Positions 7,132 through 56,532 of a stretch of DNA of 64,000 bases are shown in pieces (the first letter of the stretch is position 1; each line of letters starts with the position of its first letter). The translations under genes were made by a program, and so were the position numbers. The stretch comes from an uncultured Alphaproteobacteria bacterium (GTDB taxonomy: Bacteria > Pseudomonadota > Alphaproteobacteria > Paracaedibacterales > CAITNM01): the NCBI GenBank assembly GCA_903874955.1, contig CAIQTY010000037.1, forward strand, positions 5,397 through 69,396, in the 5' to 3' direction. A model generated the notes under the pieces. It searched no databases and had not been told where the DNA came from. It worked only from the letters and a program-made list of their open reading frames with translations.

Positions 7132-8382
7132 TTATTTTGCTTTTACCTCTACAAGGGTTTTCCAATTTGTTGTGTATGCTGGGGTTTTGTGGTCTCTTTT
7201 GTTCATCCATCCGACGCTTTGACCACATGATAATGGACGAACGGTCCCAAGGCCAAAACGTTGATTGATGCTATCCATAACCTTATCAATGTCGGGCTTT
7301 CTAGATTGATTGACTGAAACGAATAATTCTTTAGCAGACGGGGCGTTTGCATCACGCAGGTCAATCGCCATAATACCCAGTTTATGGTAAGCAACCGTTG
7401 GGTCAAAAAAACTTTCAACTGCTTGCTGCGCAAGGGTAATAATCGATGTTGTATCATTCGTAGGAGCTGCCAATACGATTGTTTGCTGATGAAAAACCGG
7501 TTTTTCGCTGCGGTAACGAGAATTCCGAGCGTACACCCAGATGGTCATGGTTTTTTGCGAAGATGCCCGTAGCTTGTGGGCCAGGCGAAACCCATAACGT
7601 GCGATGATTTGTTTTAGGGTTTCTAAATCTTGTACCGGCTCTGATAAGCTTCTGGTAATTTGAATGGATTTTTTGCTTTCCTGAATCAGGCTTAAGGACA
7701 GACATGAAATCCCGCCAAGCTCACGCAGGGTTCGTTCTACAATAACATTATATTTTCTTCTGGCCCAAGCAGGATCAGTCGTCATCAGATCATAGGCAGT
7801 GTATACGCCATGTTCTTTTAGGCTTTTATTAAGCCTTGTGCCAATTCCCCAGATTTTAGCAACGGGAATAGCTTTTAAATTATCATGATAGGCTTTGGTG
7901 TGGTCTATATAGCATGAAATCCCGCGCACTTTGGATTCAAGATTCGCAAGCTTCGCTAAGGTTTTTGTCGGGCCAAATCCAATTGAAGTGGGAATGCCTG
8001 TACATTGTAATATATGCTTTCGAAGCCGATCACCTTCCTCGGCCCAGTTTATTGAATCATTAAATTCTAAAAAGGCTTCATCAACTGAGTAGACTTCAAC
8101 TTTTTCACATTCCTGCTGCAAGATATTCATGACTCTGCGGCTCATGTCTCCGTACAACTCAAAATTACAGGATAGTACTTGGATATCGTAGGCTTTCACT
8201 AAATGGCGTATTTCAAATAGAGGGGCCCCCATGGGAATGCCTAGAAGCTTTGCTTCATTAGAGCGAGCGATAGCGCACCCATCGTTATTTGATAGAACAA
8301 TCACAGGCTTGTTTTCAAGATCAGGCCTAAAGACCCGCTCGCAGGAGACGAAAAAGTTGTTGCAATCAATTAAAGCAAACAT
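7132..8382 (-). CDS. umuC: Y-family translesion DNA polymerase, UmuC-like
   Basis: The N-terminus MFALIDCNNFFVSCERVFRPDLENKPVIVLSNNDGCAIARSNEAKLLGI is near-colinear with the E. coli UmuC N-terminus. ATG at 8382 is preferred over the track's GTG at 8391. The stop abuts the rluC-like ATG. Confidence 0.8.
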   Translation of the reverse strand: MFALIDCNNFFVSCERVFRPDLENKPVIVLSNNDGCAIARSNEAKLLGIPMGAPLFEIRHLVKAYDIQVLSCNFELYGDMSRRVMNILQQECEKVEVYSVDEAFLEFNDSINWAEEGDRLRKHILQCTGIPTSIGFGPTKTLAKLANLESKVRGISCYIDHTKAYHDNLKAIPVAKIWGIGTRLNKSLKEHGVYTAYDLMTTDPAWARRKYNVIVERTLRELGGISCLSLSLIQESKKSIQITRSLSEPVQDLETLKQIIARYGFRLAHKLRASSQKTMTIWVYARNSRYRSEKPVFHQQTIVLAAPTNDTTSIITLAQQAVESFFDPTVAYHKLGIMAIDLRDANAPSAKELFVSVNQSRKPDIDKVMDSINQRFGLGTVRPLSCGQSVGWMNKRDHKTPAYTTNWKTLVEVKAK

Positions 8383-8574
8383 GGGTAGCACCAGATGACA
8401 TTATCAAGAATATAAAACCATATGGTGTTTGCGTCTAGTTATCATATCGTTGGTAAGATTTTATCTCAATATTGTTTTATGAGTATTTTTGAGGGGTGAT
8501 ATTTAATTATTAACTCAATATTAATTGCTGTATTTTAAATTGTAAATACAATAAATAGAAATTATAGGATCAAA

Positions 8575-9912
8575 ATGGAAAACACAAGCGTAAATAATAA
8601 AAAAACGTATTCTGTAAAATTATTGCAGAATGCACTAAAGCTTACCGCTGTTAGTATAATTTTTATTGGGGATGGGTTTTGTTCTGCACCTAAATCAAAC
8701 TCCTATCTATCATCAGCGAGTAGCCTTTTATCATCAGCGAGCAATGCTGTATGGAATAATGCATTTATTCCTACACAAGAGAATCTTGATAAAAAAAATA
8801 TCATAGATCAAATAGTTCTAGGGACACAGATAAAACAAGTTGTAATTGATAAACTATGGAAATTAGATATAAAAAATCTTAAATTAATACAAAAGCTAGT
8901 TACAGGAATGAATTCTTCTGATGGAATAATATGGTGTGAGTTTTTTGCTAAAAAATCATTTGCTTATCTTAACAAATTAGCTTCACTTGTTAAAAATACG
9001 ACCCCTCAAGCTAAATCTAAGCTGTTAGATCAATCTAAGCTGCTAAATAAGTTTTACCTGGATGATGATTATCTTGAAACAATAGCTTTCCTTACTAAAA
9101 ATATGACCCATGAAGATAAATCTATACTGTTAGAAAAGTCTTCTTCTCTCGGTATGGATGCGCCTGATAAGAGACTTGAATTAATAAATAAATTTAATTT
9201 ATTAGTATCCAGGGGAGTTTTTCGTCCAGTTCTTTTCCTTGATAAGCCAGAGAGTGAAGTTAAATTTGTGGCTTCCATAGAGCATTTTGTTAAACCTGAA
9301 CATTTAAAAGAATTATCAAAAAATATTCGTTGGGTATTGGAAGAAACCAATGTAAATATTACAAAAGGTTATTATGAAGCAATAAATCCTCATAACCCTA
9401 ACATTACTGCATTAAGCAGAGTAGGTGATTTGAATACAAAAGATGAAAACTGGGTTGTTTGTTTAAAATTAGTTCCAATAGAAATTGTTGCATTGTTAGA
9501 AACAATAATTGCAAAATTAAATAAAAAATTAGAAGAAAAAATCATTGATGCAAATCAGTTAAAAGATGCTTTATATGCAATAAAGGTTTTGCTTATAGGT
9601 CATGTCAATAAAATTTATGAATTTGAAATTGATTGCGCTAAAATGGAGCTAGCAGCTAATGAGCCATTTAGAGAATTTAAACAACTACCAGTTTATAGAG
9701 GAAATGCAGAAACATATGATCAGTATAGAGTCGCTAAGAAAAATGCTCAGCAACAAATCCTAGCATGGCAAGAAAAACTCATACGTCATGAAAAAAAGTT
9801 GAATGCCGACGAAGAAAAATTCAGAAATAATCTCCAATCTATCAATAATATTATTGATAATGAACCGGAATTTTACAATAAGTTTATGAATTATATTGTT
9901 CCGTTGACTTGA
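8575..9912 (+). CDS. orphan protein, 445 aa, N-terminal hydrophobic anchor
   Basis: Long ORF in a very AT-rich stretch (16/60 G+C in line 8581-8640) with a hydrophobic segment LKLTAVSIIFIGDGF. I recognise no family. Confidence 0.6.
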   Translation: MENTSVNNKKTYSVKLLQNALKLTAVSIIFIGDGFCSAPKSNSYLSSASSLLSSASNAVWNNAFIPTQENLDKKNIIDQIVLGTQIKQVVIDKLWKLDIKNLKLIQKLVTGMNSSDGIIWCEFFAKKSFAYLNKLASLVKNTTPQAKSKLLDQSKLLNKFYLDDDYLETIAFLTKNMTHEDKSILLEKSSSLGMDAPDKRLELINKFNLLVSRGVFRPVLFLDKPESEVKFVASIEHFVKPEHLKELSKNIRWVLEETNVNITKGYYEAINPHNPNITALSRVGDLNTKDENWVVCLKLVPIEIVALLETIIAKLNKKLEEKIIDANQLKDALYAIKVLLIGHVNKIYEFEIDCAKMELAANEPFREFKQLPVYRGNAETYDQYRVAKKNAQQQILAWQEKLIRHEKKLNADEEKFRNNLQSINNIIDNEPEFYNKFMNYIVPLT

Positions 9913-9940
9913 TAACATAGCGTATGTCTCAACTAAAGCT

Positions 9941-9959
9941 CCTCCGACTAAGTCGGAGG
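9941..9959. terminator. bidirectional intrinsic terminator between convergent orphan genes
   Basis: CCTCCGAC-taa-GTCGGAGG is a perfect 8-bp GC-rich stem followed by AAGCTTTTATT. Confidence 0.6.
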
Positions 9960-9995
9960 AAGCTTTTATTGGGATAACGAAATTTATGAATCGTA

Positions 9996-10967
9996 CTATT
10001 GATCAGTCTTTGCCGTATTGACGGTGTTTGTAGACCTCTTTGAATCATCAGACGATATATGTGTAGTGCTGGTGCTTTTTAGTGACGCACTAGTTGGAGT
10101 AATTGAAACTGCCAAGGTTGCGAGCGGCGCCGACGATGCTGCTGGAGCTGATAATGAATTTGTAGCCGTACTTGCTTCTTTTGATGGATCAATAACTTTA
10201 AGGCGTCCGGTTTCTATTAATTTCTTTTTAATATGTTCCAGCTTTAACAAATCACTCAAGAAGCTATTTGTTTCGCCGCAAATTCTTCTAAATGTCATGT
10301 GAGTATGATAATATTCATGCTCTTTACGGATTTTCTGGTCAAGGGAATACACAATACCATTTTCTCCAACCGTAATCTCTGTAACCATTGGTTTTGGTGG
10401 TTGTTGTCCAAAAAAATTCATAAAAGGAAGATAATTAAGCCGCTTCAAAGAATAATTCACACCTCTCAATAGTAGTGAGTCATCCTGGTTGTCAAAGTCA
10501 AATATACAATGCCCCACAGCCCGTATAAGATCCTTTCTTTCTGAAATGAGCACTGATACGTTTGGATGCGTATCCTGTGCTCCGATTTGATCTAGTTTGG
10601 AATAAAAAGCAGACATGTTATTTAAAACGCTTTTTGCTTGCTTAATATAATCACTGGTATTTTTATAATCACTGATATCTTTAGTTATTGTTTGTGTGAT
10701 TTCAAATTTTATGATTGCGTCGTGGCCTGAAGCTGCTTTTCCTTGGGAAATATAATCGTATATTTCTTGAGCGCTAGAATTAAATTCCTTAAATAGGATC
10801 AGTTGCTTTAATGGTGTAAAGCAGTGCCGTATTACTTTTTTATCATCAGCTGCTAAATCCGAAGAAGTGCTTGATGAAGAACTTGCCGATGAAGCGTGAA
10901 CGAAGTTTACCAAAAAACATCCGACAACGCTGAATAGTAAAGCAATTTTTTTGAAATTTAGGCTCAT
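9996..10967 (-). CDS. orphan secreted protein, 323 aa, Ser-rich ends
   Basis: Signal-peptide-like MSLNFKKIALLFSVVGCFLVNFVHASSASSSSS and a C-terminal S/T/A-rich tail. I recognise no family. Confidence 0.6.
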   Translation of the reverse strand: MSLNFKKIALLFSVVGCFLVNFVHASSASSSSSTSSDLAADDKKVIRHCFTPLKQLILFKEFNSSAQEIYDYISQGKAASGHDAIIKFEITQTITKDISDYKNTSDYIKQAKSVLNNMSAFYSKLDQIGAQDTHPNVSVLISERKDLIRAVGHCIFDFDNQDDSLLLRGVNYSLKRLNYLPFMNFFGQQPPKPMVTEITVGENGIVYSLDQKIRKEHEYYHTHMTFRRICGETNSFLSDLLKLEHIKKKLIETGRLKVIDPSKEASTATNSLSAPAASSAPLATLAVSITPTSASLKSTSTTHISSDDSKRSTNTVNTAKTDQ

Positions 10968-11310
10968 AAGAATCCCCCTTACATTTAAAGTTAATTCACT
11001 GTAATTCTGCCAATTCAGTTAATGGTTTTGGGTTGTATATTTCTATAAAACGTCTTAATTCACGACGAGTTAACAGATGATAAAATTGTAGCAGCAATTA
11101 CGTTAATGCCAAGTAAAGAAGGTGGTGTATTAATAATAAATGTGAGAGTTTTTATTTCACTTTGATTTATTGTGGTCAATGCAAAAAATATTATTTGCTG
11201 ATTTGATAATAATATTTGACTGAAGATAGTGCGCCAATAGATAAACGGCTCTCAATCGCTGCTATAAAAGGGTTGCATTAATATTTTCTTTTGAAATTAT
11301 TCCATGCAAA

Positions 11311-11341
11311 CTAGATCCGTATTCTAAGGTAACGGATCTAG
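11311..11341 (-). terminator. 10-bp perfect hairpin downstream of the 531-aa orphan gene
   Basis: CTAGATCCGT-(11 nt)-ACGGATCTAG lies 41 nt after the stop at 11382. The trailing U-tract is weak (UUUGCAUGG). Confidence 0.3.
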
Positions 11342-11381
11342 CGCGCAAGGAACTTCAGATTTTTTTAGGGTGAGCGTTATC

Positions 11382-12962
11382 TTAGCTTGGTCCTGCTGGT
11401 ACTAAGATTTCGTAGTTTATTGGTACATATAAATTACTTAGATCTAGATTATATAACTCTATATGTGAAGTATACTTGAATGAATCAACTGAAAATTCAT
11501 ACATTTTTAATGGTATGCCTAATTTTTCTTTCAAATGTTTTGCGTAATGGTTGTCAAAAATGCTTGATTCATAAGCAATAAAAAGGCTTTTATTCTCTAG
11601 CGGTTTTTCAGCTTGTTCTAAGGCTGCTCTCATTCCTGGAGTAGACAATTTCTCTAGGTGAGTACCTAAAATTCTGTCGAATAGGCTTTGATGCCTATAT
11701 TTGACGCATTCAAGTAAGCTTCGATCAAATGCTGCATTCGTAGCATCTGCTTCCAACCTATCAAGGATTGCCTCTTTTTGATTCATATAAGCATGAACTA
11801 AACCATCATCTTTTGCTTTTTGGGAAGGCTTTGGATTGCTTGATCCAACAGTTAAAAGTGTTAAGTATTCTTGGTTCCCATGGGCAGCTGCGCAAACATA
11901 TAAGGCATCTATTAGATTTTGCGATGGCAGAGCCGCAAGCCTAGAAAACAAATTCAGGGCCTCTTTTACAATTTTCCATTGATTTTCCCTAGCTTTCTTT
12001 GCAGTGAATGCTTCTACAACGTTGATACTTGGTTTTTTTCCAGTGTTTGCTGATAGCATCTCCTCTGCTCGAACATAATTCCCCCTGTTTAAGGTTAGAT
12101 CTAAAGCGTAGTTTTTTGCCTCAACGGATGGTTTAGGCCAGGACGCACTTGCTAGCATTCTATCCATTAAGGTGTAATTATTGAGTTTTGCAGCTTGAGT
12201 GTACAATAAGATTACACTGGTTTGATCAGGTTGGAACTTTTCTAAAATTTTCATTTTCTCTTCAGTTTCTAGAAGTGAAGTTCCTCTTTTTTTTAAATCG
12301 GTTGTAAAAGCTACGATAAAGCTCTGTGCCAACCAATTTTTCTGCTGATGGCGCATTTGTCGATTGCCTTTTAAAAAAAGCTCAGTATGGTCTAACACAA
12401 ACTGTGCAAACTCTCCAAAACCATGACTATTACAATAGTTCAACAGTCCATCAGCAAAATTAGATTGCCAATCTCTATTGTTTTTTTCTCGCGACGAAAT
12501 AAACCAAATAAATGCTCCAAGATATCCTTTCCCGATGGTGCTTTCAAAATTTTTAAAATGTTGTTCTAGGAAGCTTTTTTTTCCAAATAAAGGAGTTGGA
12601 GTTCTAAAGGGGGTATCGCCGCTTCCAAAAAAATCTTCAAAAGTTTGTTTAGATGCCAGTAAAAATAACGTTCCTTGCCAACCCACTTTGCAAAGTAGGC
12701 TATGAACTAGTTTGCGCTTTTTGAACGTTTCTTTTTGTTCAGATTCATATTGTACGGGGCGTAAACTCTTAAATTCAGCAGGAGCTATTTTTTCTTTTAA
12801 TTTTTCATTGAGTTCAACAATATTTTTTTTAATGTCAGCACTATGTAATAATTGCAGGGCTATCTGTGCTTTTTTCCAGCTTTCCAGCTCGTCTAATGAA
12901 TCTGCTGAAAAAATTGCTGTACACCCGATCCATAGTATCATTATTGTTTTTAGTAGAGTCAT
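11382..12962 (-). CDS. orphan secreted protein with ankyrin-like 33-residue periodicity
   Basis: ATG at 12962 gives MTLLKTIMILWIGCTAIFSADS. (K/L)PS motifs sit at residues 283, 316, 351 and 384 (track numbering), each followed by helix-like segments. An example is PSQNLIDALYVCAAAHGNQEYLTLL, which resembles the ANK consensus. Confidence 0.6.
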   Translation of the reverse strand: MTLLKTIMILWIGCTAIFSADSLDELESWKKAQIALQLLHSADIKKNIVELNEKLKEKIAPAEFKSLRPVQYESEQKETFKKRKLVHSLLCKVGWQGTLFLLASKQTFEDFFGSGDTPFRTPTPLFGKKSFLEQHFKNFESTIGKGYLGAFIWFISSREKNNRDWQSNFADGLLNYCNSHGFGEFAQFVLDHTELFLKGNRQMRHQQKNWLAQSFIVAFTTDLKKRGTSLLETEEKMKILEKFQPDQTSVILLYTQAAKLNNYTLMDRMLASASWPKPSVEAKNYALDLTLNRGNYVRAEEMLSANTGKKPSINVVEAFTAKKARENQWKIVKEALNLFSRLAALPSQNLIDALYVCAAAHGNQEYLTLLTVGSSNPKPSQKAKDDGLVHAYMNQKEAILDRLEADATNAAFDRSLLECVKYRHQSLFDRILGTHLEKLSTPGMRAALEQAEKPLENKSLFIAYESSIFDNHYAKHLKEKLGIPLKMYEFSVDSFKYTSHIELYNLDLSNLYVPINYEILVPAGPS

Positions 12963-13164
12963 AGCACCTCTATTCAATTCTTTTTGATAGCAATATAATA
13001 TATAGTAATAAATATTTTAGTTACAATAAGCATTTTATATTTTTTACGATTTTTAAATTCTTAATGATGCGCTCAAATATATTATTTTTAATGACACATA
13101 GCATTAACTTCTTTTTCAAAAATTGTGTGCTACATTTACTCAGGATATACAAACAAAAATTTTT

Positions 13165-18679: not shown

Positions 18680-18982
18680 ATGCCAAAACCAGCGACATTT
18701 ATGGGTGCCATGCACGTTTGCCCGATGGTGACTATGGTGGGAATCGTGCCTGTCCCCCATGTGGGCGGGCCTGTAATGGGGACTGCCGCTACAGTTTTGG
18801 TAGCGGGTCCTCCTGCTGTGAATATCGGCGATATGGGTATTTGCGTGGGCCCACCGGATTCAGTTGCTTTGGCAAGCGTTACGGTTATGGCGCAAGGAAA
18901 GCCAATGGCACGTATGGGGGATTTGTCAGGTCATGGCGGTACGATTGTATTGGGAATGCCAACGATTATTGTTGGTGATTAG
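18680..18982 (+). CDS. PAAR-domain protein (contractile-injection spike tip), stand-alone 100 aa
   Basis: Repeated PAAR-like strands: HVCPMV...HVGGPV, TVLVAGPPAVNIGDMGIC, TVMAQGKPMARMGDLSGHGGTIVLGMPTIIVGD. There is no extension domain. Confidence 0.75.
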   Translation: MPKPATFMGAMHVCPMVTMVGIVPVPHVGGPVMGTAATVLVAGPPAVNIGDMGICVGPPDSVALASVTVMAQGKPMARMGDLSGHGGTIVLGMPTIIVGD

Positions 18983-19474
18983 TTTATGCTGCCTAAAATT
19001 TTACTTATCCTACTAGGTTCGGAATCACCATTCCAAGGCAGTTTCCTCACGGTTTGATCCAGATTGATTTGGGTAGGTGCCCAAGCAAAACTATAGAATC
19101 TATAGTCTCCCTCTGACTTGATTAAAGAGTCCAATCAAAGGAATCTAACGTGTGACCAGGCAAGCCAGAGTAAAACTCGTGTAGCTGCGAATATTTTTCA
19201 AGTTTTTTTGGAGTATATAATCTCGAACTGAGGTGGATTTAATCTACAGCAGGTAGTGTTTAATTATCTTTTTTCTGAAATTTTGTTATTTTTTTAAATA
19301 GTTTTCTGAATTTCTACGTATTTAAATGATGGTTTACCTAAATTTTCCATCTTTAACTTGGTCTTTTTTGATTTTACTTTACTATTTAAATAATTTATTA
19401 ATTTTTCTCTGGTAATATATATCTCTTTTTGGTACTTTAAATCGCAAATCAAATTATTGATATTAGGGCTAATT

Positions 19475-21547
19475 ATGATCAAATTTCGTTCATTGCTATT
19501 TTTATTGTTGTTTTCTTTGGGGGTATTATTGCAGGCTGCAGCTGTAGCTGCACCTACACCTTCAACAGGTGATTATAATTATGATGACTTGCGTCATCGG
19601 CTTGAAAACACATCGGGGCCAGATGCTTTAGATGCATTTGTTGAATTTTGTGGAAGAAGAATAATTGCTGTTCCTCAGGAATACGACTTTTCAATTGATC
19701 GTGAAAATCAATATAAATTGAGTGAACAATGCCAGATAGCATGTACGATTAGGTCCGCCAGGATTGCTTTTATCCGATTAGCCGATGATCAACTTTCTCG
19801 ATTATTAGTTGATTCTAAATATAACGAATTTCTATCAAGTGCACTTGGTTTTAGTTTTATTCACGGATGGATATTGGCACGATCAGAAGCAGTAATTACC
19901 CCCTATTACGTTGGTAAGTACTTTAGCTATGAAAAAATGTATCAGGGGTTAATTGCTCAAGTTGAATCTGGAAATATTAAAACACGTTTTAATGACTTGT
20001 TGTGTGATGGTATTGTAAGTATAAATGCTGCCAATGAGGTAAGAGAGCTCGGATACTTTTTTGACTACGTAATCCCCTTGCATTACGCGATTGAGAAGGC
20101 AAAAGAAGCACCTGTTACATCATCAGTAACGACGGCAGCGCCAACAATACAAAAATTTAATCCCGCACTTTCAATGAGGAGAATTATTCAAGATGCAACT
20201 GACTTCCGCTTGAATTGGGGTGTGAAAACTGAGCGTAATCCTTTTGTGTTTGACTCAAAAAGTGAGGTGAAGAAAAAAAAAGCGAGTTTTACTACTAGCA
20301 CAAAAAAATCGACATGGGGAAGCTATGCTAAAGCAGCTTTTGTTGTTGGTGCTATTGCTATTGCTGGTCTTCGTGCCTATACGGTCCGTGATTGCATAGG
20401 GAGAGCACCTTATTTTAACCAAGGAAATGAAACTATAGGTTTATTCGATTTTACAAGTCCTTCTGCAGCTTATTGTTTAGTGAATCCAAGTGCTTATCCG
20501 AATCAAGAATGGATGCCAATAATTCAAAGTTCAGCTAATAGCACTAACGCCTCTTCCCAGTTTTCTGGTAATGGAGCTGTTGGTGGCGTTGGATCTGTGG
20601 ACGATACGGATAACGAGGAAGGTGAAGAAGGTGATAAGACCTCAGTTGATGAAGAAGAATATGAACATGGATCTTCAAACTCAACAACTTTCCAAGGTTC
20701 TACAGAACTAATGTTACATTCAGCCAATGAGAAAGCACTAGTACTTTTTAACGGTACAGCAATAGCTCACAAAGATGACGAATTTTCTGTGATTTTGCGA
20801 CCTAAAGATGAGTTTATTTCACTTTTTCAAATCTTGGGATGTTTTAGTCGCAAATATCAATCAGACTTATATCCAAAACATTTTAGAAATGATGTGTTCG
20901 ATCATATATTCCAAGAAGGATATAACGAAACATATCAACAAAATTTTATAGATAGTTTTGACGATAACCAAAGAAAAGTATTGATTTCTGCTGGTCAACA
21001 GTTAAATTGTGGGCAAATTCGTGGAATATATCTCAAAAATATAAAATATGGAACACTTTTAGGTCCACAAAGGCAAACTTACGAACGGTTAAAGCTAGTA
21101 TTATCTCAAAAACAGAAAGAAAAAATTTCTTCACTAAGACTACGAGAATATGATGAACTGGATGATGATGAAAAATTATTTTTATTGTTAACAGGGGTAA
21201 TAGACGGATCTAAATCATCAGTAGTACAAAGAATCTTTACTCGCAATGGATGGGCACCAATGCAGCAAATAAATATACTCGAATTATCCAGCAAAGGACA
21301 ATTTAACGATCAACTTTTAGGTTATTTATTAAATTTACTTGATGGAGGAGCAATAGAAATTGGTCAGAAATACGATCCTACAACTCGAAAGAAAATCCAT
21401 TGTATAAAAGCTCAGGTTTCTCCAACGGAATATAATTTAATATACATAGACCCTTTGACTAAACAACCCAAGACCGATCGCTATAATAATAGGGGCTTTA
21501 TTCCACCGGAAAATAATTATTTTCTCACCATAAATACAACAAACTAG
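19475..21547 (+). CDS. orphan membrane/secreted protein (~690 aa)
   Basis: ATG at 19475 gives MIKFRSLLFLLLFSLGVLLQAAAVAAP. There is an internal TM segment (AAFVVGAIAIAGLRAY) and an acidic patch DDTDNEEGEEGDKTSVDEEEYEHG. I recognise no family. Confidence 0.6.
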   Translation: MIKFRSLLFLLLFSLGVLLQAAAVAAPTPSTGDYNYDDLRHRLENTSGPDALDAFVEFCGRRIIAVPQEYDFSIDRENQYKLSEQCQIACTIRSARIAFIRLADDQLSRLLVDSKYNEFLSSALGFSFIHGWILARSEAVITPYYVGKYFSYEKMYQGLIAQVESGNIKTRFNDLLCDGIVSINAANEVRELGYFFDYVIPLHYAIEKAKEAPVTSSVTTAAPTIQKFNPALSMRRIIQDATDFRLNWGVKTERNPFVFDSKSEVKKKKASFTTSTKKSTWGSYAKAAFVVGAIAIAGLRAYTVRDCIGRAPYFNQGNETIGLFDFTSPSAAYCLVNPSAYPNQEWMPIIQSSANSTNASSQFSGNGAVGGVGSVDDTDNEEGEEGDKTSVDEEEYEHGSSNSTTFQGSTELMLHSANEKALVLFNGTAIAHKDDEFSVILRPKDEFISLFQILGCFSRKYQSDLYPKHFRNDVFDHIFQEGYNETYQQNFIDSFDDNQRKVLISAGQQLNCGQIRGIYLKNIKYGTLLGPQRQTYERLKLVLSQKQKEKISSLRLREYDELDDDEKLFLLLTGVIDGSKSSVVQRIFTRNGWAPMQQINILELSSKGQFNDQLLGYLLNLLDGGAIEIGQKYDPTTRKKIHCIKAQVSPTEYNLIYIDPLTKQPKTDRYNNRGFIPPENNYFLTINTTN

Positions 21548-36445: not shown

Positions 36446-37786
36446 TTAATGGTACTGATAAAAAGGTTTTAAGCCATCTGCATATCCTGAGTCGATCATG
36501 GTAAAACCTAATAGATTAGCTATTTCCTTGTTTTCAAATTTTTGTGCACTTAGCGCTCGTTGATCAAAACTGAAAACTGATCCATGGCTACTAAAGCTTA
36601 CCATGTCCTGATTTTTACGCAGGTTTAGCTTCTGTTTGATTGTTTGCCAAACACCTGAAAAACTTATACTTTTTAGCGAAGTGAATCTTTTTCTGAAAAG
36701 TTCCAAAGGATCCAAAGGATCCATATCGGCTGATTTAAGTGCTTTCACCTGTTCATCTTCTAGTTCTAAAATAGATGTTAGTGCTTTTTCGCTAATACTT
36801 GCTGCGTAAACATTGCGTAAATTATGGCAAAAACAATATGCTAGCATTTGCTCTTCACCAGGAAGATCCTGCATTTTAGTGACCAATTCTAAATTTTTGG
36901 CATCTTGATAAAAACCAAAGGTTTTAAAAAACACATCAACAACTGCTGCAGCTTGTTGTTTTAGAGCATTATCTTCTTTAAACAGCTGAGCAACTCGGTA
37001 TTCAAGGAAATGTTCAGGGTTAATAGCTTTCCAAGGGTTATCCGATGCTTGCATCGCCTTATTAAACTGTAAAATTTCCAATGATTCTTGATCTGTTGCT
37101 CCATCAGCTATAAGCGTGTTGTCTTTTTTCACTCCCAGTGCCATAAGCATTAATTTGTATAATCCATAGTTATAAAATACTCTGTTATCATCTAACATTT
37201 GGTGTGTTTTAAATATCATAATATGCCCAAAAATTTTTACTTTTTGATCTTTAGAATCAGTAGTTGATGGCAGGCGAACTATATTTGCGTCAAGATGATT
37301 GTCTTTTCTTGATAATAAGTGAGGAAAAAAACTCGGCGCAGCAAGCTGATTTTGAGGATCTAACCTGGCTATGTAATCCTTACCATCTTCAATAGTGATA
37401 CTGCCTTTTAAAACTCTATTGATAAAACTTTCAAAAGGACTTTCGTGCCTATCTCTTTCAGAGCGAAAAATTTCATACCACTTATAAAAATGTTCCGCTG
37501 TTTCTAAAAACCATTCATAGCGGCTTTTGCAAAGGCCTAGAGGTTTGAATTCTTTATCAAGTATTTCTCCATTATTATTATTTCTAATATTTTGAAGTTT
37601 TTTATAATTATCCCAGCAGGATAGGAAACAAACAGCTCCCACTTGCTGAGGGACCAAGTAAATATGGGGTTTTTGATCTTGCCTATCTATTTTTGCTTCT
37701 TCAGAACTTGAATTGGCTACGGAGAAAAACGCTAGGTTAATACTAAAAAATATTAAGAAATTTTTAATTTTTAAATTTTTAATCAT
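36446..37786 (-). CDS. orphan secreted protein, 446 aa
   Basis: Signal-peptide-like MIKNLKIKNFLIFFSINLAFFSVANSS. AT-rich. I recognise no family. Confidence 0.6.
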   Translation of the reverse strand: MIKNLKIKNFLIFFSINLAFFSVANSSSEEAKIDRQDQKPHIYLVPQQVGAVCFLSCWDNYKKLQNIRNNNNGEILDKEFKPLGLCKSRYEWFLETAEHFYKWYEIFRSERDRHESPFESFINRVLKGSITIEDGKDYIARLDPQNQLAAPSFFPHLLSRKDNHLDANIVRLPSTTDSKDQKVKIFGHIMIFKTHQMLDDNRVFYNYGLYKLMLMALGVKKDNTLIADGATDQESLEILQFNKAMQASDNPWKAINPEHFLEYRVAQLFKEDNALKQQAAAVVDVFFKTFGFYQDAKNLELVTKMQDLPGEEQMLAYCFCHNLRNVYAASISEKALTSILELEDEQVKALKSADMDPLDPLELFRKRFTSLKSISFSGVWQTIKQKLNLRKNQDMVSFSSHGSVFSFDQRALSAQKFENKEIANLLGFTMIDSGYADGLKPFYQYH

Positions 37787-43224: not shown

Positions 43225-43881
43225 ATGAAAGTTTTTTTCTATATATTGTTTGGGTTTTTTTTTAGTTTTGCACCTGCCTATGCAGCATATGGTGCTTATG
43301 ATGATGATCCAAGCACAATGGCTGATGATGGAAGCGATCCGAGTGCAGATCCTTATGCAGATCCGAATGCAGGTAATGATGGAAGTGATCCGAGTGCAGA
43401 TCCTTATGCAGATCCGAATGCAGGTGATGATGGAAGCGATCCGAGTGCAGATCCTTATGCAGATCCGAATGCAGGTAATGATGGAAGCGATCAGAATGCA
43501 GGTAATGATGGAAGCGATCAGAATGCAGGTAATGATGGAAGCGATCAGAATGCAGGCGATGATGGAAGCGATCCGAGTGCAGATCCGATGCAGGCACCGG
43601 CAGCTAATGCAAGAGCTGCAGCGCCTGGTGGTCCTTTGACTAAAAAAATCAAGAAACCAAAGCCTAAGACGTCAAAGATGCGAAACAAGAGAGGGGTAAA
43701 GCAAAAGAAGCCAAAAGGTAAAATGCCTAGATTTTTTGGCAAAAAAAACAAGAAATCAAAGGGAAAACCAAAACCTAAAATGCAGCAAAAAAAGCGTTCA
43801 AAACAAAAAACGCCAAAGAAAAATCGTGCAAAATTAAAGAAGCCAAACAAGAAAGCCAAAAGTCTAAAATGCCGCAATTGA
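43225..43881 (+). CDS. secreted repeat protein: acidic DGSDPSADPYADPNAG repeats plus Lys/Pro-rich basic tail
   Basis: Signal peptide MKVFFYILFGFFFSFAPAYA, 17-aa x3 and 9-aa x3 repeats, and a tail KKIKKPKPKTSKMRNKRGVKQKKPKGK... Confidence 0.65.
   Translation: MKVFFYILFGFFFSFAPAYAAYGAYDDDPSTMADDGSDPSADPYADPNAGNDGSDPSADPYADPNAGDDGSDPSADPYADPNAGNDGSDQNAGNDGSDQNAGNDGSDQNAGDDGSDPSADPMQAPAANARAAAPGGPLTKKIKKPKPKTSKMRNKRGVKQKKPKGKMPRFFGKKNKKSKGKPKPKMQQKKRSKQKTPKKNRAKLKKPNKKAKSLKCRN
43327..43587. repeat. in-frame tandem repeats: 51 bp x3 (43327-43479), 27 bp x3 (43480-43560), partial unit to 43587
   Basis: Directly visible near-identical units gatggaagcgatccgagtgcagatccttatgcagatccgaatgcaggtaat and gatggaagcgatcagaatgcaggtaat. 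Confidence 0.9.
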
Positions 43882-44084
43882 ATCGTCAAAAATCTAGCGT
43901 GTCGAGGGTTTGTGAATTTCTTGGAAAAAAGGAAAAAAGAAAACTATCGTAAAATAGTTTGCATTTTTTATGACTTAGTTTTTAAGGATCAAAAAGGTGC
44001 TGTGCTGGGTATAATGGACTGCGCAAAATCTTGCATGGTTTAGCTCATCACTTACAAAACCTGAAATCAGAGTTATGCTTGGTT

Positions 44085-44975
44085 TCATTTAATCACGTTG
44101 TTTTTTTTAGCTTTCTTTCCCTTTTTCTTTTTTTTTCCTTTTTTAGCTTTCTTAGCCTGTTTTCTTTTTTTATTTTTTGAATCTTTTTTACCGTTCTTTG
44201 CTGCAGCTTCTGCTTTTTTGGCTGCTGCCTCAACCTTTTTTTCTTCTTTTTCAAGTTTATTTTCTTTACCTGCTAAGCTACGCTCATTCTTTTGAAGTTT
44301 TTTCACTTCTTTTTTTAGATTTTCTGCATCTTCTGGGGCATCTTCCTTAGTTTTTTCTATTATACTTTTTGCTGCAACTTCTTCTTTTTTAGCTTTTGAA
44401 ACCTCTTTTTTTGCTGTAGATGCAAGGTTTTTCATTTTTTTTACTTCTTTTTTTAACTTGCTCGCCAATTTTTTCGCGGCTTTCGGGTCTTTCACTTTGT
44501 TTGAAGCGTTTTCAAGAGTTTTTGCATTTTTGAGTTCTATATCAACTTTCTTTATCGTCGAGCCAATTTTACTCTCTTCTTTGACAACTTTTTTTATTTC
44601 TTTGTTTGCTTTTTTAGCTGCGGTTTTGGCTGCTTTTTGTTTTGCAAGATCCTCTTCTTCAGTTCCATCACTTGCCTGGCCATCTTGATCGGCGTCACCA
44701 TCGTCTGCCTGGTCATTTTGATTACCGTTATCATTCCCACCTGTATCTTCGTTGTCTCCTTGGTCTAGTGAGTCAGCATTGTTTCCATCTCCATCATTAT
44801 TGTCATCACTGCCTATTTGATTGTCTGCTTCATCGTCCATTGCAGAATCATCCTCAGTAAAGCTTTGCTGATTCATGTCGTCATCTAAGTCACTAAAATC
44901 ACCAGCCTTCAAGTGTGCTAAATTACCAATATTTAAACAAAAAATACTTAATAAAAAAAACTGAATAATTTTCAT
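44085..44975 (-). CDS. secreted protein: acidic D/N/G/Q-rich half plus K/E/A coiled-coil and poly-Lys tail
   Basis: Signal peptide MKIIQFFLLSIFCLNIGNLAHL, an acidic ~90 aa region, then KAAKTAAKKANKEIKK... ending KKRKQAKKAKKGKKKKKGKKAKK. Confidence 0.65.
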   Translation of the reverse strand: MKIIQFFLLSIFCLNIGNLAHLKAGDFSDLDDDMNQQSFTEDDSAMDDEADNQIGSDDNNDGDGNNADSLDQGDNEDTGGNDNGNQNDQADDGDADQDGQASDGTEEEDLAKQKAAKTAAKKANKEIKKVVKEESKIGSTIKKVDIELKNAKTLENASNKVKDPKAAKKLASKLKKEVKKMKNLASTAKKEVSKAKKEEVAAKSIIEKTKEDAPEDAENLKKEVKKLQKNERSLAGKENKLEKEEKKVEAAAKKAEAAAKNGKKDSKNKKRKQAKKAKKGKKKKKGKKAKKNNVIK

Positions 44976-48043: not shown

Positions 48044-48200
48044 AAAGATCATCTTTTTGTAATGTAACAATGAAATCAAATATTTTTGTTTTTTGTTGGT
48101 TTGAAAATAAAATTATTTAATTTTTATTAAATTTATATATGTACATGCCTATATTGTATTGTTAAGCTTTATGTAGAAATGGAAATGTACCTATGCGCAA

Positions 48201-50231
48201 ATGAGATATTCAATCTATACTATTTCTAGCTTTCTGTTATTAAGTTCTTGTGGACCTATTACAGAAAATTCAAAAAGTTCAGAATCTTCAGATAGTTTAA
48301 ATCAGCTTGATAGGGCTGATCAGCAGGACTCTATTTTACCAACTAGTCAGCAAGATTCATTAGGAAGTTCAAGGGAAGAAATTTCCGAAATTTTAGAAAA
48401 TAATAAACTGATACCAGAGGTTAAAAATGGAATTCTTGCAATGCAAAGAGGTGATTATGAGAGTGCCTCAAAATCTTTTAATAGTGCATTGCTCGATAAT
48501 CCCGGAGATTCTTATTTACATTTCTTAAATGGTTTGAATTATTTGCACAAAGCTGCAGCCGGAGATGCAGCCTCTAGAGATTTGGCGCTTACTGGATTTA
48601 GATACGCGATAGTGTATGACCAATCAAACGTACTTGCCCATAAGCGTTTGGGATATATGTATTATCAAACAAAAGAGTATGCTAGGGCTCAGCAGCATTT
48701 TGCTGAAGTTTTACTGCTGCAAGAGCCAAATGTTAAAGCATTATATGCATTAGCTGCAGCTTCTTATTATAATCGAGATCTCAAAACAGCTTATGCTTCT
48801 ATAAATAAGGCAGCAAGCATGGCACCAGATAATATTTTTGTGCTAAAAGCAGCAGCGATGATTGCTGCTGCGCTGAATCAACCCTTAGATGTACAAAATT
48901 TCCGCAAGAAATATATGGATGTATCTAAGAAATCCGATGGGCACCTTGATAGACGCTTACATCAATGGATGAGTGTGCATAACAATCCAAACTTAATTCT
49001 AACTTCAGCAGATGCAGGAGATGATTCTGGAGGTGATGGTGCGGGAGATGATGATGCAGGTGCAGACGCGGACGCAGACGCAGACGCGGGTGGTGGTAAT
49101 GATGCAGGAGGCAACGCTAAACCTGGTGGAGCACCAGATTTACCAGGCGATGACGCTCTTCCCCCATCAGACGGAACAGTTGCTGCCACTCCAATGGCTA
49201 AAAAATTAGGCGATTTTGATCCAAAAAATCCAGATACCTTCGTCATAGATTGTGCAATTATGAGGGTAAGCGAAGAGGGAAAAACCTCTAAGGGTAGTAA
49301 TATTCTTGATACCATAAATGTTGTGCTTAATCCTGGTACCTATACTGGCAACAGAACTTGGACAAATAATACAGGTAATGGTAACACAAAAGCAATGAAC
49401 TTCACTCAAAGTTTTGGGCTTAGTCAACCGGCTACTGCTACCTATTCTCTGAATATCTTTAACGTTACCGATACGCGCATAGAAGTTGTCGCTCGTCCCA
49501 CCGTTATGGCCGCTTTAGGCAAAGTTTCTGAATTCTTTGCGGGAACAGACTTAATAGCAAACGTTTCATCAGCTGCTGCTGGTAATAGCATTGAGAAATT
49601 GCCGATAGGCTATCGTGTTACCGTTACGCCAATTGGTTCTCGTAAAAACAAGGACGGTGTTTTGAAAATTCAGTTCGACGTTCGTGTTGAGGGTAACTCT
49701 GTAGGCGTGCTGTATGGCTATACAGGTTCTAATTCAACTGCCACCTCAAATTATAGCCAAATTAACCACAGTTCAGTTTGTACAACGGTCGAATTATCCT
49801 TTGGTGAAACAGTTATTTTGGCTGGTCTGTACGATCGAGAAGATAATATGACCAAATCAAAAACGCCCGGTCTTGGTGATATTCCTGGTCTTGGTTTGTT
49901 ATTTTCATCGGAAACAACAGATAGTTCAAGAAAATCTGTCGTTTACATGATGACATTGCGTCCAACGGAAAAAATGCAAGAAGATGCGAATATGTTTAAC
50001 GATGGTCGAAGAATAAGCCCAGAAGTTCTTGAGCTTCAAATGAAAAATATTAGTTGGTTCAATACAGTTCCTGTATCTGCAATTTTGATGAAAGGTTTAT
50101 CAAGAATATACCGAGAATTCAGAACAGGTGATATTCCCAATATTTACTGGGATCATCAAGATATGGGAGAAAAAAAACTTGGGGAGATGAATAACGAAAT
50201 TGGAGAAGCCGTCAGAATGATGGATTCATAA
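48201..50231 (+). CDS. lipoprotein fusing TPR repeats to a secretin (GspD/PilQ/RcpA-type) C-domain
   Basis: Lipobox LLSSC (Cys17). TPR-like helices span ~75-235. A D/G/A low-complexity linker spans 270-325. The secretin core spans ~347-588 and ends GETVILAGLYDRED...KTPGLGDIPGLGLLFSSETTDSSRKSVVYMMTLRP. Confidence 0.75.
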   Translation: MRYSIYTISSFLLLSSCGPITENSKSSESSDSLNQLDRADQQDSILPTSQQDSLGSSREEISEILENNKLIPEVKNGILAMQRGDYESASKSFNSALLDNPGDSYLHFLNGLNYLHKAAAGDAASRDLALTGFRYAIVYDQSNVLAHKRLGYMYYQTKEYARAQQHFAEVLLLQEPNVKALYALAAASYYNRDLKTAYASINKAASMAPDNIFVLKAAAMIAAALNQPLDVQNFRKKYMDVSKKSDGHLDRRLHQWMSVHNNPNLILTSADAGDDSGGDGAGDDDAGADADADADAGGGNDAGGNAKPGGAPDLPGDDALPPSDGTVAATPMAKKLGDFDPKNPDTFVIDCAIMRVSEEGKTSKGSNILDTINVVLNPGTYTGNRTWTNNTGNGNTKAMNFTQSFGLSQPATATYSLNIFNVTDTRIEVVARPTVMAALGKVSEFFAGTDLIANVSSAAAGNSIEKLPIGYRVTVTPIGSRKNKDGVLKIQFDVRVEGNSVGVLYGYTGSNSTATSNYSQINHSSVCTTVELSFGETVILAGLYDREDNMTKSKTPGLGDIPGLGLLFSSETTDSSRKSVVYMMTLRPTEKMQEDANMFNDGRRISPEVLELQMKNISWFNTVPVSAILMKGLSRIYREFRTGDIPNIYWDHQDMGEKKLGEMNNEIGEAVRMMDS

Positions 50232-50262
50232 GCTTTTGTAATTTGCCATTTCCTGCTACAAA

Positions 50263-50288
50263 AGAGCTAGTTATCTAGCTCTTTTTTT
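50263..50288 (+). terminator. canonical intrinsic terminator after the secretin gene, ending 2 nt before the thrS ATG
   Basis: AGAGCTAG-ttat-CTAGCTCT is a perfect 8-bp stem followed by a T-run. Confidence 0.7.
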
Positions 50289-55383: not shown

Positions 55384-55869
55384 TTACTCAGTAACTATTG
55401 GCATTTGGTTTTTCGTTTCCTCTAAAAGCTCAGTGCATAGATTTAATAAATTTTCTATGCGTTTTTGTTTTTTTAAATTTTTTAACTGGTAGGGTTCTCT
55501 ATACAATTCAACAAGTTTTAAAATTAGTTTCAGTGGTGATGATTTGCTGATCGTCGTAAGCTGCTCTAAAATTTTCTGAGCACTAAGCAGAGAGTCAATT
55601 TTACCACCTAATACTTTTTGCTGCGCTAGAAATTCTGCTTGAACGGGAATTGTGTGGTCTAACAACCCTTTAATTGTTAATAGTTTGAAGCCTAAAAACT
55701 TTAATGACAGAATATTAGCTAGTTTTAGTAGCTCGGTTTCCCTATAGACTCTGAAACCATTTTCCTGGTTTTTTAAAGGGGATAGCAGTCCGATCTGATC
55801 ATAGTGATGCAAAGTTCTTACCGATACATTTGTAAGTTTGCTAAATTCACTAATTTTATATTTTTGCAT
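55384..55869 (-). CDS. MerR-family transcriptional regulator
   Basis: The N-terminal wHTH ISEFSKLTNVSVRTLHHYDQIGLL is a MerR signature. Confidence 0.8.
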   Translation of the reverse strand: MQKYKISEFSKLTNVSVRTLHHYDQIGLLSPLKNQENGFRVYRETELLKLANILSLKFLGFKLLTIKGLLDHTIPVQAEFLAQQKVLGGKIDSLLSAQKILEQLTTISKSSPLKLILKLVELYREPYQLKNLKKQKRIENLLNLCTELLEETKNQMPIVTE

Positions 55870-55962: not shown

Positions 55963-56532
55963 TTATCCGTGTTGCATTGCGTTGGGAATAAGTTCATAGA
56001 CTTCTGCCAAAATAACACTACAAGCAACAAGAATCTCCTCGTTAGATAAGTTATCTATTTGTTGAAGGATATGGCTAATTTTTTGACTGTATTCTTTAGC
56101 CTTTTTAGTCAATTCAGGTAATACCTTGCGGGTGCACATTTTTTCTAGATAGTGAGATACCCTATAAAGTTCGATAAGTTTTAAGATTAAATCCGATGGA
56201 AGCGATTCAGATGTTTCTGTGAGCTCTGATAAAATTTTACTGGCTTTCGATAAAATGTTGATTTTTTTATCTAAAATTTTCTTTTGTTCTAAAAAACGTT
56301 CCTTAATAGGAATAGTTTTATCGAGTAATCCCTTAATTACCAGAAGATCAAACCCCAGAAACTTTAGCGAAAGTATTTTCAAAAGGACCTGAAGGTCTCT
56401 TTCTTCATAAAGACGAAAACCATTCATTTGATTTTTTGATGCTTTTAGCAATCCAATTTGGTCGTAATGATGCAAGGTTCTCACAGAAACTCCCGTAAGC
56501 TTGCTAAATTCGCCGATTCTCCACTGATTCAT
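55963..56532 (-). CDS. MerR-family transcriptional regulator (tandem paralog)
   Basis: IGEFSKLTGVSVRTLHHYDQIGLL. It is colinear with the neighbouring MerR gene through about 105 aa. Confidence 0.8.
   Translation of the reverse strand: MNQWRIGEFSKLTGVSVRTLHHYDQIGLLKASKNQMNGFRLYEERDLQVLLKILSLKFLGFDLLVIKGLLDKTIPIKERFLEQKKILDKKINILSKASKILSELTETSESLPSDLILKLIELYRVSHYLEKMCTRKVLPELTKKAKEYSQKISHILQQIDNLSNEEILVACSVILAEVYELIPNAMQHG

Follow-up and report, generated by a model that had tools for sequence, protein, structure and literature searches.

A lipid-anchored family of TPR-secretins without periplasmic ring domains in protist endosymbionts and free-living bacteria, and its possible role in pilus-independent protein export

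A 64-kb stretch of contig CAIQTY010000037.1 from an uncultured alphaproteobacterium (assembly GCA_903874955.1; the whole stretch is hereafter the window) carries at 48201..50231 (+) an open reading frame (ORF) that starts with ATG and encodes a 676-amino-acid protein in which a tetratricopeptide repeat (TPR) domain precedes a secretin domain. Judged from its sequence, the product is a secretin-family outer-membrane protein made up of a lipid anchor, a tether, the TPR domain, a linker, a minimal secretin core and a helical tail. It belongs to a widespread, unnamed family of liposecretins that is devoid of N-domains. With confidence that is evenly poised, we propose that the protein may act as a self-piloting, pilus-independent secretin exporting periplasmic proteins. 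To our knowledge, the well-studied secretins all form the outer-membrane end of a larger machine, i.e. a type II secretion system (T2SS), the type IV pilus (T4P), the Tad pilus, the type III secretion system (T3SS) or the filamentous-phage assembly apparatus, and are docked to it via their N-domains. Most of them need a separate pilotin.

Protein architecture and the absence of ring domains

A sequence-only reading had described the gene as a possible fusion of a TPR pilotin to a secretin, with a lipobox at Cys17, TPR-like helical repeats at amino acids 75-235, a linker rich in D, G and A that contains a microsatellite, and a secretin core with a GETV-type motif. All of these parts are present, and the domain-profile searches and structure prediction suggested there as checks assign the N-terminal half to TPR and the C-terminal half to secretin. 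What stands of the fusion idea is a lipoprotein TPR domain joined to a secretin core. The idea is too narrow, however, as the pairing with giant lectin- or toxin-like Sec substrates in free-living relatives points beyond it to an autonomous exporter. By sequence the TPR half is not specifically pilotin-like: the PilW model TIGR02521 aligns over amino acids 58-236 with 21.6 bits against a cut-off of 154.

The protein starts with a lipoprotein signal peptide containing the lipobox LSSC, read from the sequence at amino acids 1-17 (48201..48251, +). The N-terminus, MRYSIYTISSFLLLSSC, consists of a positive n-region, then a hydrophobic core, then L-S-S-C; Cys17 is the predicted lipidated residue and is directly followed by Gly, not Asp. 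Across an alignment of 102 family members (A2) the lipobox pattern occurs in 83, and the Cys17 column is at least 90% conserved. An S/Q/D/E-rich disordered tether follows at amino acids 18-71 (48252..48413, +), variable between orthologs (dN/dS 0.19). In the AlphaFold model, for which a 102-sequence family alignment served as input and which has a mean predicted local distance difference test score (pLDDT) of 75.6, the tether scores 44-63 to about residue 60; the values then rise, and a short helix (amino acids 56-67) enters the TPR domain. The TPR solenoid itself, 12 helices forming about six repeats, spans amino acids 72-261 (48414..48983, +), slightly beyond the range that had been claimed; Pfam recognizes it (TPR_2, E 2.3e-10; TPR_1, E 6e-7) and it is modelled at pLDDT 95-98. 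Between solenoid and core lies an acidic, disordered linker (amino acids 262-345; 48984..49235, +) dominated by D, A, G and P (19, 16, 16 and 9 of its 84 residues). It contains a (GCAGAC)x4.3 microsatellite, located by Tandem Repeats Finder at 49062-49087, and is modelled as disordered over amino acids 269-336 (pLDDT ~39-48).

The secretin core was delimited at amino acids 346-588 (49236..49964, +) from PF00263, the alignment to GspD and Foldseek. PF00263 matches amino acids 423-585 with 82.1 bits against a cut-off of 27.5 (E 5e-23), the beta-core is modelled at amino acids 346-587 with pLDDT mostly of 80-93, and Foldseek matched the core to every secretin class with a solved structure, namely T2SS, Tad, T4P and T3SS secretins and pIV (E 1e-13 to 6e-9, probability 1.00). 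It can be aligned to GspD residue by residue via the motifs GETV.L.GL and P.LGDIP..G.LF. Its other elements are the first beta-hairpin (VIDCAIMRVSE..KG.N.L), the YSLNIFN motif, the gate strands and the amphipathic-helix-loop motif PGLGDIPGLGLLF (amino acids 556-568; 49866-49904), and the family-invariant residues include D350, G365, N367, P433, F445, G448, T537, G542 and P562. Profile scores of the core were 98-104 bits for GspD/PulD, 91 for RcpA, 86-89 for PilQ and 63 for pIV; at the profile level, and in agreement with Foldseek, the core is thus about equally distant from GspD/PulD, RcpA and PilQ, with pIV further away.

Behind the core comes a family-specific helical C-terminal tail (amino acids 589-676; 49965..50231 with the stop codon, +), for which profile comparison gave no match among solved secretins. 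Four of its residues, R641, G643, D644 and W650, form a near-invariant motif (at least 90% conserved), and in 84 of the 102 members the last four residues are an aromatic tetrapeptide (FLYY, FLYF, FLWY and similar). Such an FLYY-type terminus may be bound by the TPR groove, in the way that TadD binds the C-terminus of RcpA, or may alternatively be a BAM beta-signal. In the endosymbiont clade to which the window belongs, the C-terminal end is instead NEIGEAVRMMDS (window 50193-50228), a predicted helix ending in ...MMDS.

In canonical secretins, N-domains build the periplasmic rings by which the channel is attached to GspC, PilP and the other machine components (in part after PMC10499894). Neither the rings nor the domains that build them could be found here. 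Secretin_N, STN, AMIN and T2SS-T3SS_pil_N (PF13629) gave no Pfam match at E <=1 in the 676-residue protein, and the AlphaFold model shows nothing but disordered linker from the end of the TPR domain to the first beta-hairpin of the core. Throughout 102 diverse relatives this linker measures 36-152 residues, with a median of 72, and abounds in A, S, P, G and D. It is therefore too short and too disordered to leave room for a folded N0-N3 module. N0-N3 or N-domain rings are consequently absent from the protein and from the whole family.

Family distribution and neighboring genes

The sequence-only reading had called the protein an orphan, which is not borne out. A word-indexed search returned 26 close relatives (54-100% identity) and five distant ones (27-30% identity), all full-length members having the TPR-plus-Secretin architecture; repeating the word-indexed search with the family profile added nothing new. 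When 1.84 billion cluster representatives were searched exhaustively with the profile, 646 matched at E <=1e-30. Since long TPR proteins can inflate that number, we take at least 150 clusters (50% identity) as the safe family size: in the best 150 representatives (420-934 bits) the match extended over the TPR half as well as the secretin-plus-tail half, in about two thirds of them as a single stretch. The full architecture occurs in Alpha-, Beta- and Zetaproteobacteria and in Verrucomicrobia, with Thalassospira, Roseospirillum parvum 930I, Pacificispira, other Rhodospirillales, Mariprofundaceae, Sulfuritalea and Verrucomicrobia among the named carriers.

That the architecture might already be a named family had also been raised, and no such family came to light. 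The NCBIfam secretin and pilotin models all scored far under their cut-offs: besides PilW, these are TIGR02517 (GspD; 56.5 bits vs 351), TIGR02515 (PilQ; 56.7 vs 284) and TIGR02516 (SctC; 41.5 vs 238). Members are labelled in databases as 'hypothetical protein', 'TPR repeat protein' or 'general secretion pathway protein D'/'GspD', and we found in the full-text literature no description of the TPR-secretin architecture or of secretins in this endosymbiont group. The main secretin phylogeny was restricted to secretins of systems in which ATPase, platform protein and pilin are all present (Denise et al. 2019). Two outlying relatives may be mentioned. On the Asticcacaulis sp. AND118 plasmid NZ_CP084912.1 (L031, 13248-14897) there is a shorter, 549-residue TPR-plus-Secretin protein, WP_226746377.1, labelled in RefSeq only as 'tetratricopeptide repeat protein', its secretin domain having been missed by automatic annotation; its neighbors, four hypothetical proteins of which one is also a TPR protein, are uninformative on function. 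A deep-branching member in Alphaproteobacteria bacterium 16-39-46 (L018, 228-2318), another low-GC alphaproteobacterial metagenome-assembled genome (MAG), adjoins a protein with five Sel1 repeats, and the contig end cuts off its upstream side.

The neighborhoods of the free-living relatives provide the main lead. In 15 of the 15 free-living loci with enough flanking sequence to be assessed, the gene adjoins one or more large proteins of Tectonin, Ricin-B, Vps62 or discoidin type (790-4368 amino acids), most of them on the same strand as the secretin and separated from it by gaps of 7-120 bp. Every complete neighbor starts with a Sec-type signal peptide. Similarities of the neighbors are to the defence lectin Tectonin 2, to lectins of the pyocin-L kind and to an insecticidal protein from Gram-negative bacteria, and AraC-type or response regulators often adjoin these loci. 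In a neighbor-joining tree of 232 core columns the secretins cluster by cargo, with bootstrap values of 98 for the Tectonin-linked clade and 100 for the clade linked to Ricin-B giants; Thalassospira has two non-sister secretin types, each with a different cargo. Such co-inheritance of cargo and secretin argues for a functional exporter-cargo module. A recognition domain common to all cargo classes was not found, weak similarities (E 1e-5 to 1e-8 over 150-200 amino acids) being confined to some classes.

Tectonin neighbors (790-865 amino acids) are found in loci L002, L016, L017, L024 and L027/L028. They flank the secretin on both sides in L017, in L024 (by homology to L017) and in L027/L028; L027 has an additional 830-residue copy, L016 shows only the downstream one, and L002 has a 978-residue copy about 1.8 kb upstream on the opposite strand. 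Ricin-B giants of ~4368 residues, whose full-length copies are 67-89% identical, occur in L003, L019, L022 and L029 and also in L002, and another Ricin-B giant (2227 residues) belongs to R. parvum 930I (L015). Vps62 neighbors are a 1373-residue protein in L001 and an 1129-residue protein combining Vps62 and Ricin-B in L014, a Pacificispira sp. chromosome, where two tandem TPR-secretin paralogs (7947-9848 and 9785-11773) lie downstream of it and an 895-residue ABC transporter lies further upstream. In Thalassospira aquimaris (L020) and T. australica (L021) the giant has at least 2142 residues and contains Ricin-B and discoidin domains, three of each, along with a CDT-A-like region. These two loci are the exception to the tight spacing, with two opposite-strand genes between giant and secretin; an ABC ATPase stands in that interval.

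No pilus or T2SS partner was found beside the gene in either group. Queries with E. coli GspC, GspE-M, GspO, HofB, HofC and PpdD gave no tblastn match at E <=0.01 in the window and no homolog in 24 related loci, which were taken with +/-10 kb as far as the contig reached, and GspD matched the TPR-secretin genes only. Tad- and T3SS-specific components, judged by eye and via the shared homology of T2SSE ATPases, were not recognized in the window, whose remaining ORFs are housekeeping genes or orphans. The earlier statement that the 64 kb hold no partner gene for a T2SS or T4P thus agrees with the tblastn results, and for Tad and T3SS with inspection by eye. It had likewise placed the gene correctly between an ftsE-ftsX-ydcF block and thrS: FtsE (ABC_tran), FtsX and a DUF218 protein (YdcF-like) were found upstream, and the downstream 637-residue ORF is taken as thrS from its sequence.

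The organism of the window is a Candidatus Finniella-like, Holosporales-like endosymbiont of protists. Seven relative MAGs, assigned to Candidatus Finniella and 'Odyssella sp.' and likewise Holosporales-like endosymbionts of protists, share with it the order ftsE-ftsX-DUF218-gene-thrS, with differing outer flanks. Their identity to the window is 66-70% for the TPR-secretin, 65-71% for FtsE and FtsX and 86-88% for threonyl-tRNA synthetase. Among the eight orthologs dN/dS (Nei-Gojobori) is 0.09 overall, i.e. the gene is under strong purifying selection in this clade. By region it is 0.025 in the TPR domain, 0.048 in the tail, 0.10 in the core and 0.19 in the linker, so that the TPR domain and the tail, with the lowest values, are the most constrained parts. 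About 100 bp 5' of the ATG hold most of the invariant columns of a six-genome alignment (A3), though synonymous sites of the gene are saturated (dS >2 vs the window); this conserved non-coding region (48100..48200, +) is a candidate promoter and 5' untranslated region. A simple sigma-70 scan of this AT-rich DNA found no confident promoter upstream. A terminator-like hairpin with an 11-bp stem and a subsequent T-run lies between the gene and thrS (50260..50285, +). With a conserved upstream region and a terminator hairpin of its own, the gene therefore looks like a separate transcription unit.

A sister clade with 56% identity likewise has the gene on its own among housekeeping genes, in the arrangements lpxD / gene / pnp and nrdAB / gene / ... 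pnp. Because the housekeeping neighbors differ between clades, we regard them as incidental and the linkage as non-functional. DUF218 was considered as a functional partner and rejected, as the 56%-identity clade has nrdAB or lpxD and an unrelated small ORF upstream. The five-gene block upstream of ftsE in the relatives, considered as a place for hidden pilus genes, consists of ppx, dapF, recJ, dapD and dapE. A phage origin was discarded as well, given 0 matches in 50,697 phage records and the stable chromosomal synteny in eight genomes.

Candidate cargo is also encoded in the window, namely many orphans with Sec signals, a patatin phospholipase of secreted type and a phosphatase resembling protein tyrosine phosphatases (PTP), all of which would require a way out through the outer membrane. 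The patatin-like phospholipase (PF01734; 22875-24041, -) and the PTP-like phytase or dual-specificity phosphatase (PF14566; 59965-60828, +) both have signal-peptide-like N-termini, and their activities are typical of host-directed effectors. Five ORFs of 323-753 residues (3450-5711, -; 8575-9912, +; 9996-10967, -; 11382-12977, -; 36446-37786, -) match no Pfam family and have mostly hydrophobic, signal-like N-termini, the 753-residue one carrying EERLRREEARRAEEERLR-type repeats; they are possible lineage-specific secreted or effector proteins and hence possible cargo of the secretin. Two small secreted-type proteins (43225-43881, +; 44085-44975, -) combine an acidic half of D/G/S/P/A repeats with a lysine-rich half and have no Pfam match. 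Their acidic repeats (e.g. DGSDPSADPYADPNAG x3) resemble the secretin linker in composition, and the strong AT-skew dip at 44000-44750 is due to the lysine-rich minus-strand gene. Elsewhere in the window, a 100-residue PAAR-motif protein (PF05488, E 1.7e-12; 18680-18982, +) is followed by a 696-residue orphan (19457-21547, +) with a signal-like N-terminus and no Pfam match. The two could be a spike-tip and effector pair of a type VI secretion system (T6SS), which fits reports of a non-standard T6SS in Holosporales. Two adjacent paralogous regulators (55384-55869, -; 55963-56532, -) appear MerR-like by eye from their N-terminal helix-turn-helix sequence.

A proposed export route and its alternatives

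We consider a stand-alone exporter the most likely function because the protein has no ring domains, because no pilus or T2SS genes stand alongside, and because in free-living relatives the type of the operonic Sec-signal proteins tracks the secretin phylogeny. According to this proposal the protein would be exported by Sec, lipidated at Cys17 and sorted by Lol to the outer membrane, where its core would form a multimeric pore with a gate. The pilotin function would be supplied in cis by the lipid anchor and the TPR domain, much as TadD or PilF does for RcpA or PilQ and as the lipid anchor does in HxcQ. The TPR groove might hold the conserved tail or the FLYY terminus of the same or a neighboring subunit. 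The pore would then perform a second export step on its own, in the family at large probably for the giant lectin- or toxin-like proteins, with a partner logic analogous to that of TpsB or Slam, and the flexibly tethered TPR arms may capture periplasmic cargo, trigger gate opening, or both. In the Finniella-like clade an adjacent cargo gene would have been lost or moved and the channel kept, probably as an exit for some of the genome's many orphan or effector-like proteins with Sec signals. More tentatively, and with rather more doubt than belief, we suggest that TPR-secretins may be the sole outer-membrane component of an unrecognized secretion route that is free of pilus and ATPase, a gate which the Finniella group would have retained for host-directed Sec effectors.

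The pilotin role in cis is plausible by analogy with TadD. That protein is a lipoprotein lipidated at Cys17 which has five TPRs and surrounds the secretin (PMC10499894; PDB 8odn, P. aeruginosa), and its TPR groove binds the last four residues of RcpA, a contact essential for secretin assembly (PMC10499894).

The export proposal should nevertheless be interpreted with caution, since a number of observations weigh against it. It is only adjacency, signal peptides and co-phylogeny that suggest export of the neighbors. We know of no energy source and no gate-opening mechanism for a secretin that lacks a pilus or pseudopilus piston. The window's own clade has no cargo gene adjacent to the secretin, and lectin-type cargo homologs are missing from the window and from the Finniella-clade loci, bar one chance-level match (E 0.008). 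The FLYY terminus, on which the idea of a pilotin in cis relies, is lost in the endosymbiont clade. The TPR domain is generic by sequence, with better matches to MamA and to CTPR/consensus TPR proteins than to pilotins in both Foldseek and profile comparisons. Moreover, a distant partner system is conceivable because most Holosporales are reported from TXSScan analyses to have 'incomplete type IV pili', and some Paracaedibacteraceae to have Tad pili (PMC9992710), although a call of incomplete T4P is also what a lone secretin match would produce.

That last point leads to the strongest alternative, namely that the protein is the ordinary secretin of a T4P, a Tad pilus or a reduced T2SS encoded elsewhere, with a TPR pilotin fused on and a pilus passing through. 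We judge this unlikely, though deserving of serious attention: pilotins that are TPR lipoproteins occur specifically in T4P, Tad and MSH systems (PMC10499894), RcpA and PilQ score nearly as high on the core as GspD, secretin genes are sometimes unlinked from their system, and the TXSScan calls in relatives fit. Yet the whole family is without the N0, N-domain and AMIN modules that couple PilQ, RcpA and GspD to an inner-membrane platform; the 24 loci and the window yielded no homolog of T2SSE-type ATPases, of platform proteins, of pilins or of prepilin peptidases, and pilus genes are absent from 30 contexts in all; and the free-living neighbors are lectin- or toxin-like Sec substrates which the secretin phylogeny follows.

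Uptake, polysaccharide export and a part in the T6SS are less likely still. Improbable in our view is a channel for import or permeability, through which macromolecules or nutrients would enter the endosymbiont as DNA does via HofQ and PilQ, or else a link between outer membrane and peptidoglycan. The dependence of Holosporales on the host for nutrients, a weak NCBIfam match to the DNA-uptake porin HofQ, and the position among envelope and division genes (ftsEX, or bamA-skp-lpxD in the P0022 clade) speak for it, and PilQ is reported to act in uptake in V. cholerae competence and in Thermus. However, known uptake secretins have N-domains and need a retracting pilus, the housekeeping neighbors vary by clade, and in free-living bacteria the gene's conserved partners have signal peptides and are of secreted type. 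Those partners bind carbohydrate, and this invites a slightly less probable reading in which the protein is a polysaccharide or polymer exporter, the secretin counterpart of PgaA, BcsC, AlgK-AlgE or PelB, in which case the polymer would be guided by the TPR domain and bound outside the cell by the lectins. The layout, in which an outer-membrane channel comes after a periplasmic TPR domain, is analogous, and secretins have recently been implicated in slime secretion (PMC12475490), but the contexts examined contain no glycosyltransferase, synthase or polysaccharide export gene, and the reduced endosymbiont genome retains the gene alone. A role as the missing outer-membrane component of the non-standard Holosporales T6SS seems very improbable. 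A review describes the T6SS of Holosporineae as apparently lacking some core components, including the outer-membrane complex protein, a PAAR gene is present in the window, and the protein is, like TssJ, an outer-membrane lipoprotein; against this, none of 30 loci examined has an adjacent T6SS gene, free-living members pair with Sec substrates, which the T6SS does not use, a secretin in a T6SS is without precedent, and a tssJ-like gene has been reported in Ca. Bodocaedibacter.

If the stand-alone exporter proves true, secretins could also act as autonomous exporters dedicated to a cargo, and a new two-step secretion route would be added to those known. It would explain how the very large lectin-type toxins of some marine and soil Proteobacteria leave the cell. 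It would also provide a candidate exit for Sec-dependent effectors of Holosporales, in which the non-standard T6SS is so far the only recognized host-directed system. The fusion is in addition a natural single-chain test of how a TPR pilotin engages a secretin. Since cultured carriers exist (Roseospirillum parvum 930I, Thalassospira australica and T. aquimaris), the idea is directly testable.

Comparison with known systems

Among pilus systems, the pair formed by RcpA/CpaC and TadD shares with the TPR-secretins the fold of the core (Foldseek E 4e-12) and, in most members, a conserved C-terminal tetrapeptide, with the difference that both parts are here contained in one chain. Unlike RcpA/CpaC, the protein has no VirB9-like N-domain or PF13629, and it has neither a tad operon nor Tad genes nearby. 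Its tail of ~90 residues is helical rather than coil, identity to RcpA is ~18%, and TadD is not among the best matches of the TPR domain. PilQ likewise shares the secretin core, and its pilotin (PilF/PilW/Tgl) is a TPR lipoprotein of the outer membrane; the AMIN, N0 and N1 domains of PilQ, its pilMNOP neighbors and pilins are however lacking here. Considered by themselves, the pilotins PilF, PilW and TadD are lipoproteins with 5-6 TPRs and thus resemble what is here the N-terminal part of a secretin chain, whereas the TIGR02521 score of 21.6 bits, against 154, leaves this part outside that family.

The best sequence and profile matches of the core are to GspD/PulD, with which the protein shares the motifs GETV.L.GL and P.LGDIP..G.LF as well as a helical C-terminal extension at the position of the S-domain. 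In contrast to GspD/PulD there is no N0-N3 and no gspC-O, and the tail is unrelated to known S-domains. SctC is more remote (41.5 bits vs 238), and no T3SS genes were recognized among the ORFs of the window. The filamentous-phage secretin pIV was the weakest match among the secretin classes listed (63 bits), and the TPR-secretin differs from it in its fixed chromosomal housekeeping context.

With respect to the anchor, the closest parallels are the liposecretins HxcQ of P. aeruginosa and BfpB and TcpC of type IVb pili, which have an N-terminal lipobox on the secretin itself. A separate pilotin is thereby unnecessary, and HxcQ is the known pilotin-independent exception (PMC12475490). The lipobox LSSC with its predicted lipidation at Cys17 follows the same pattern. 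HxcQ, BfpB and TcpC differ in that they keep N0/N-domains, have no TPR and are part of complete T2SS or type IVb pilus operons.

In the logic of export, finally, the proposed function comes nearest to systems without any secretin. TpsB joins POTRA domains to a barrel for two-partner secretion of the giant TpsA, Slam (type XI secretion system) joins TPRs to a DUF560 barrel, and PgaA and BcsC combine TPRs with a porin. All of these are monomeric 16-stranded barrels, unlike the multimeric secretin considered here, and there is no homology between them and the TPR-secretins; the Pfam match to TPR_Slam was insignificant (E 0.056). What they have in common with the TPR-secretins, as we picture them, is a dedicated channel with a periplasmic repeat domain, placed beside a Sec-exported, often giant partner and operating free of an inner-membrane motor.

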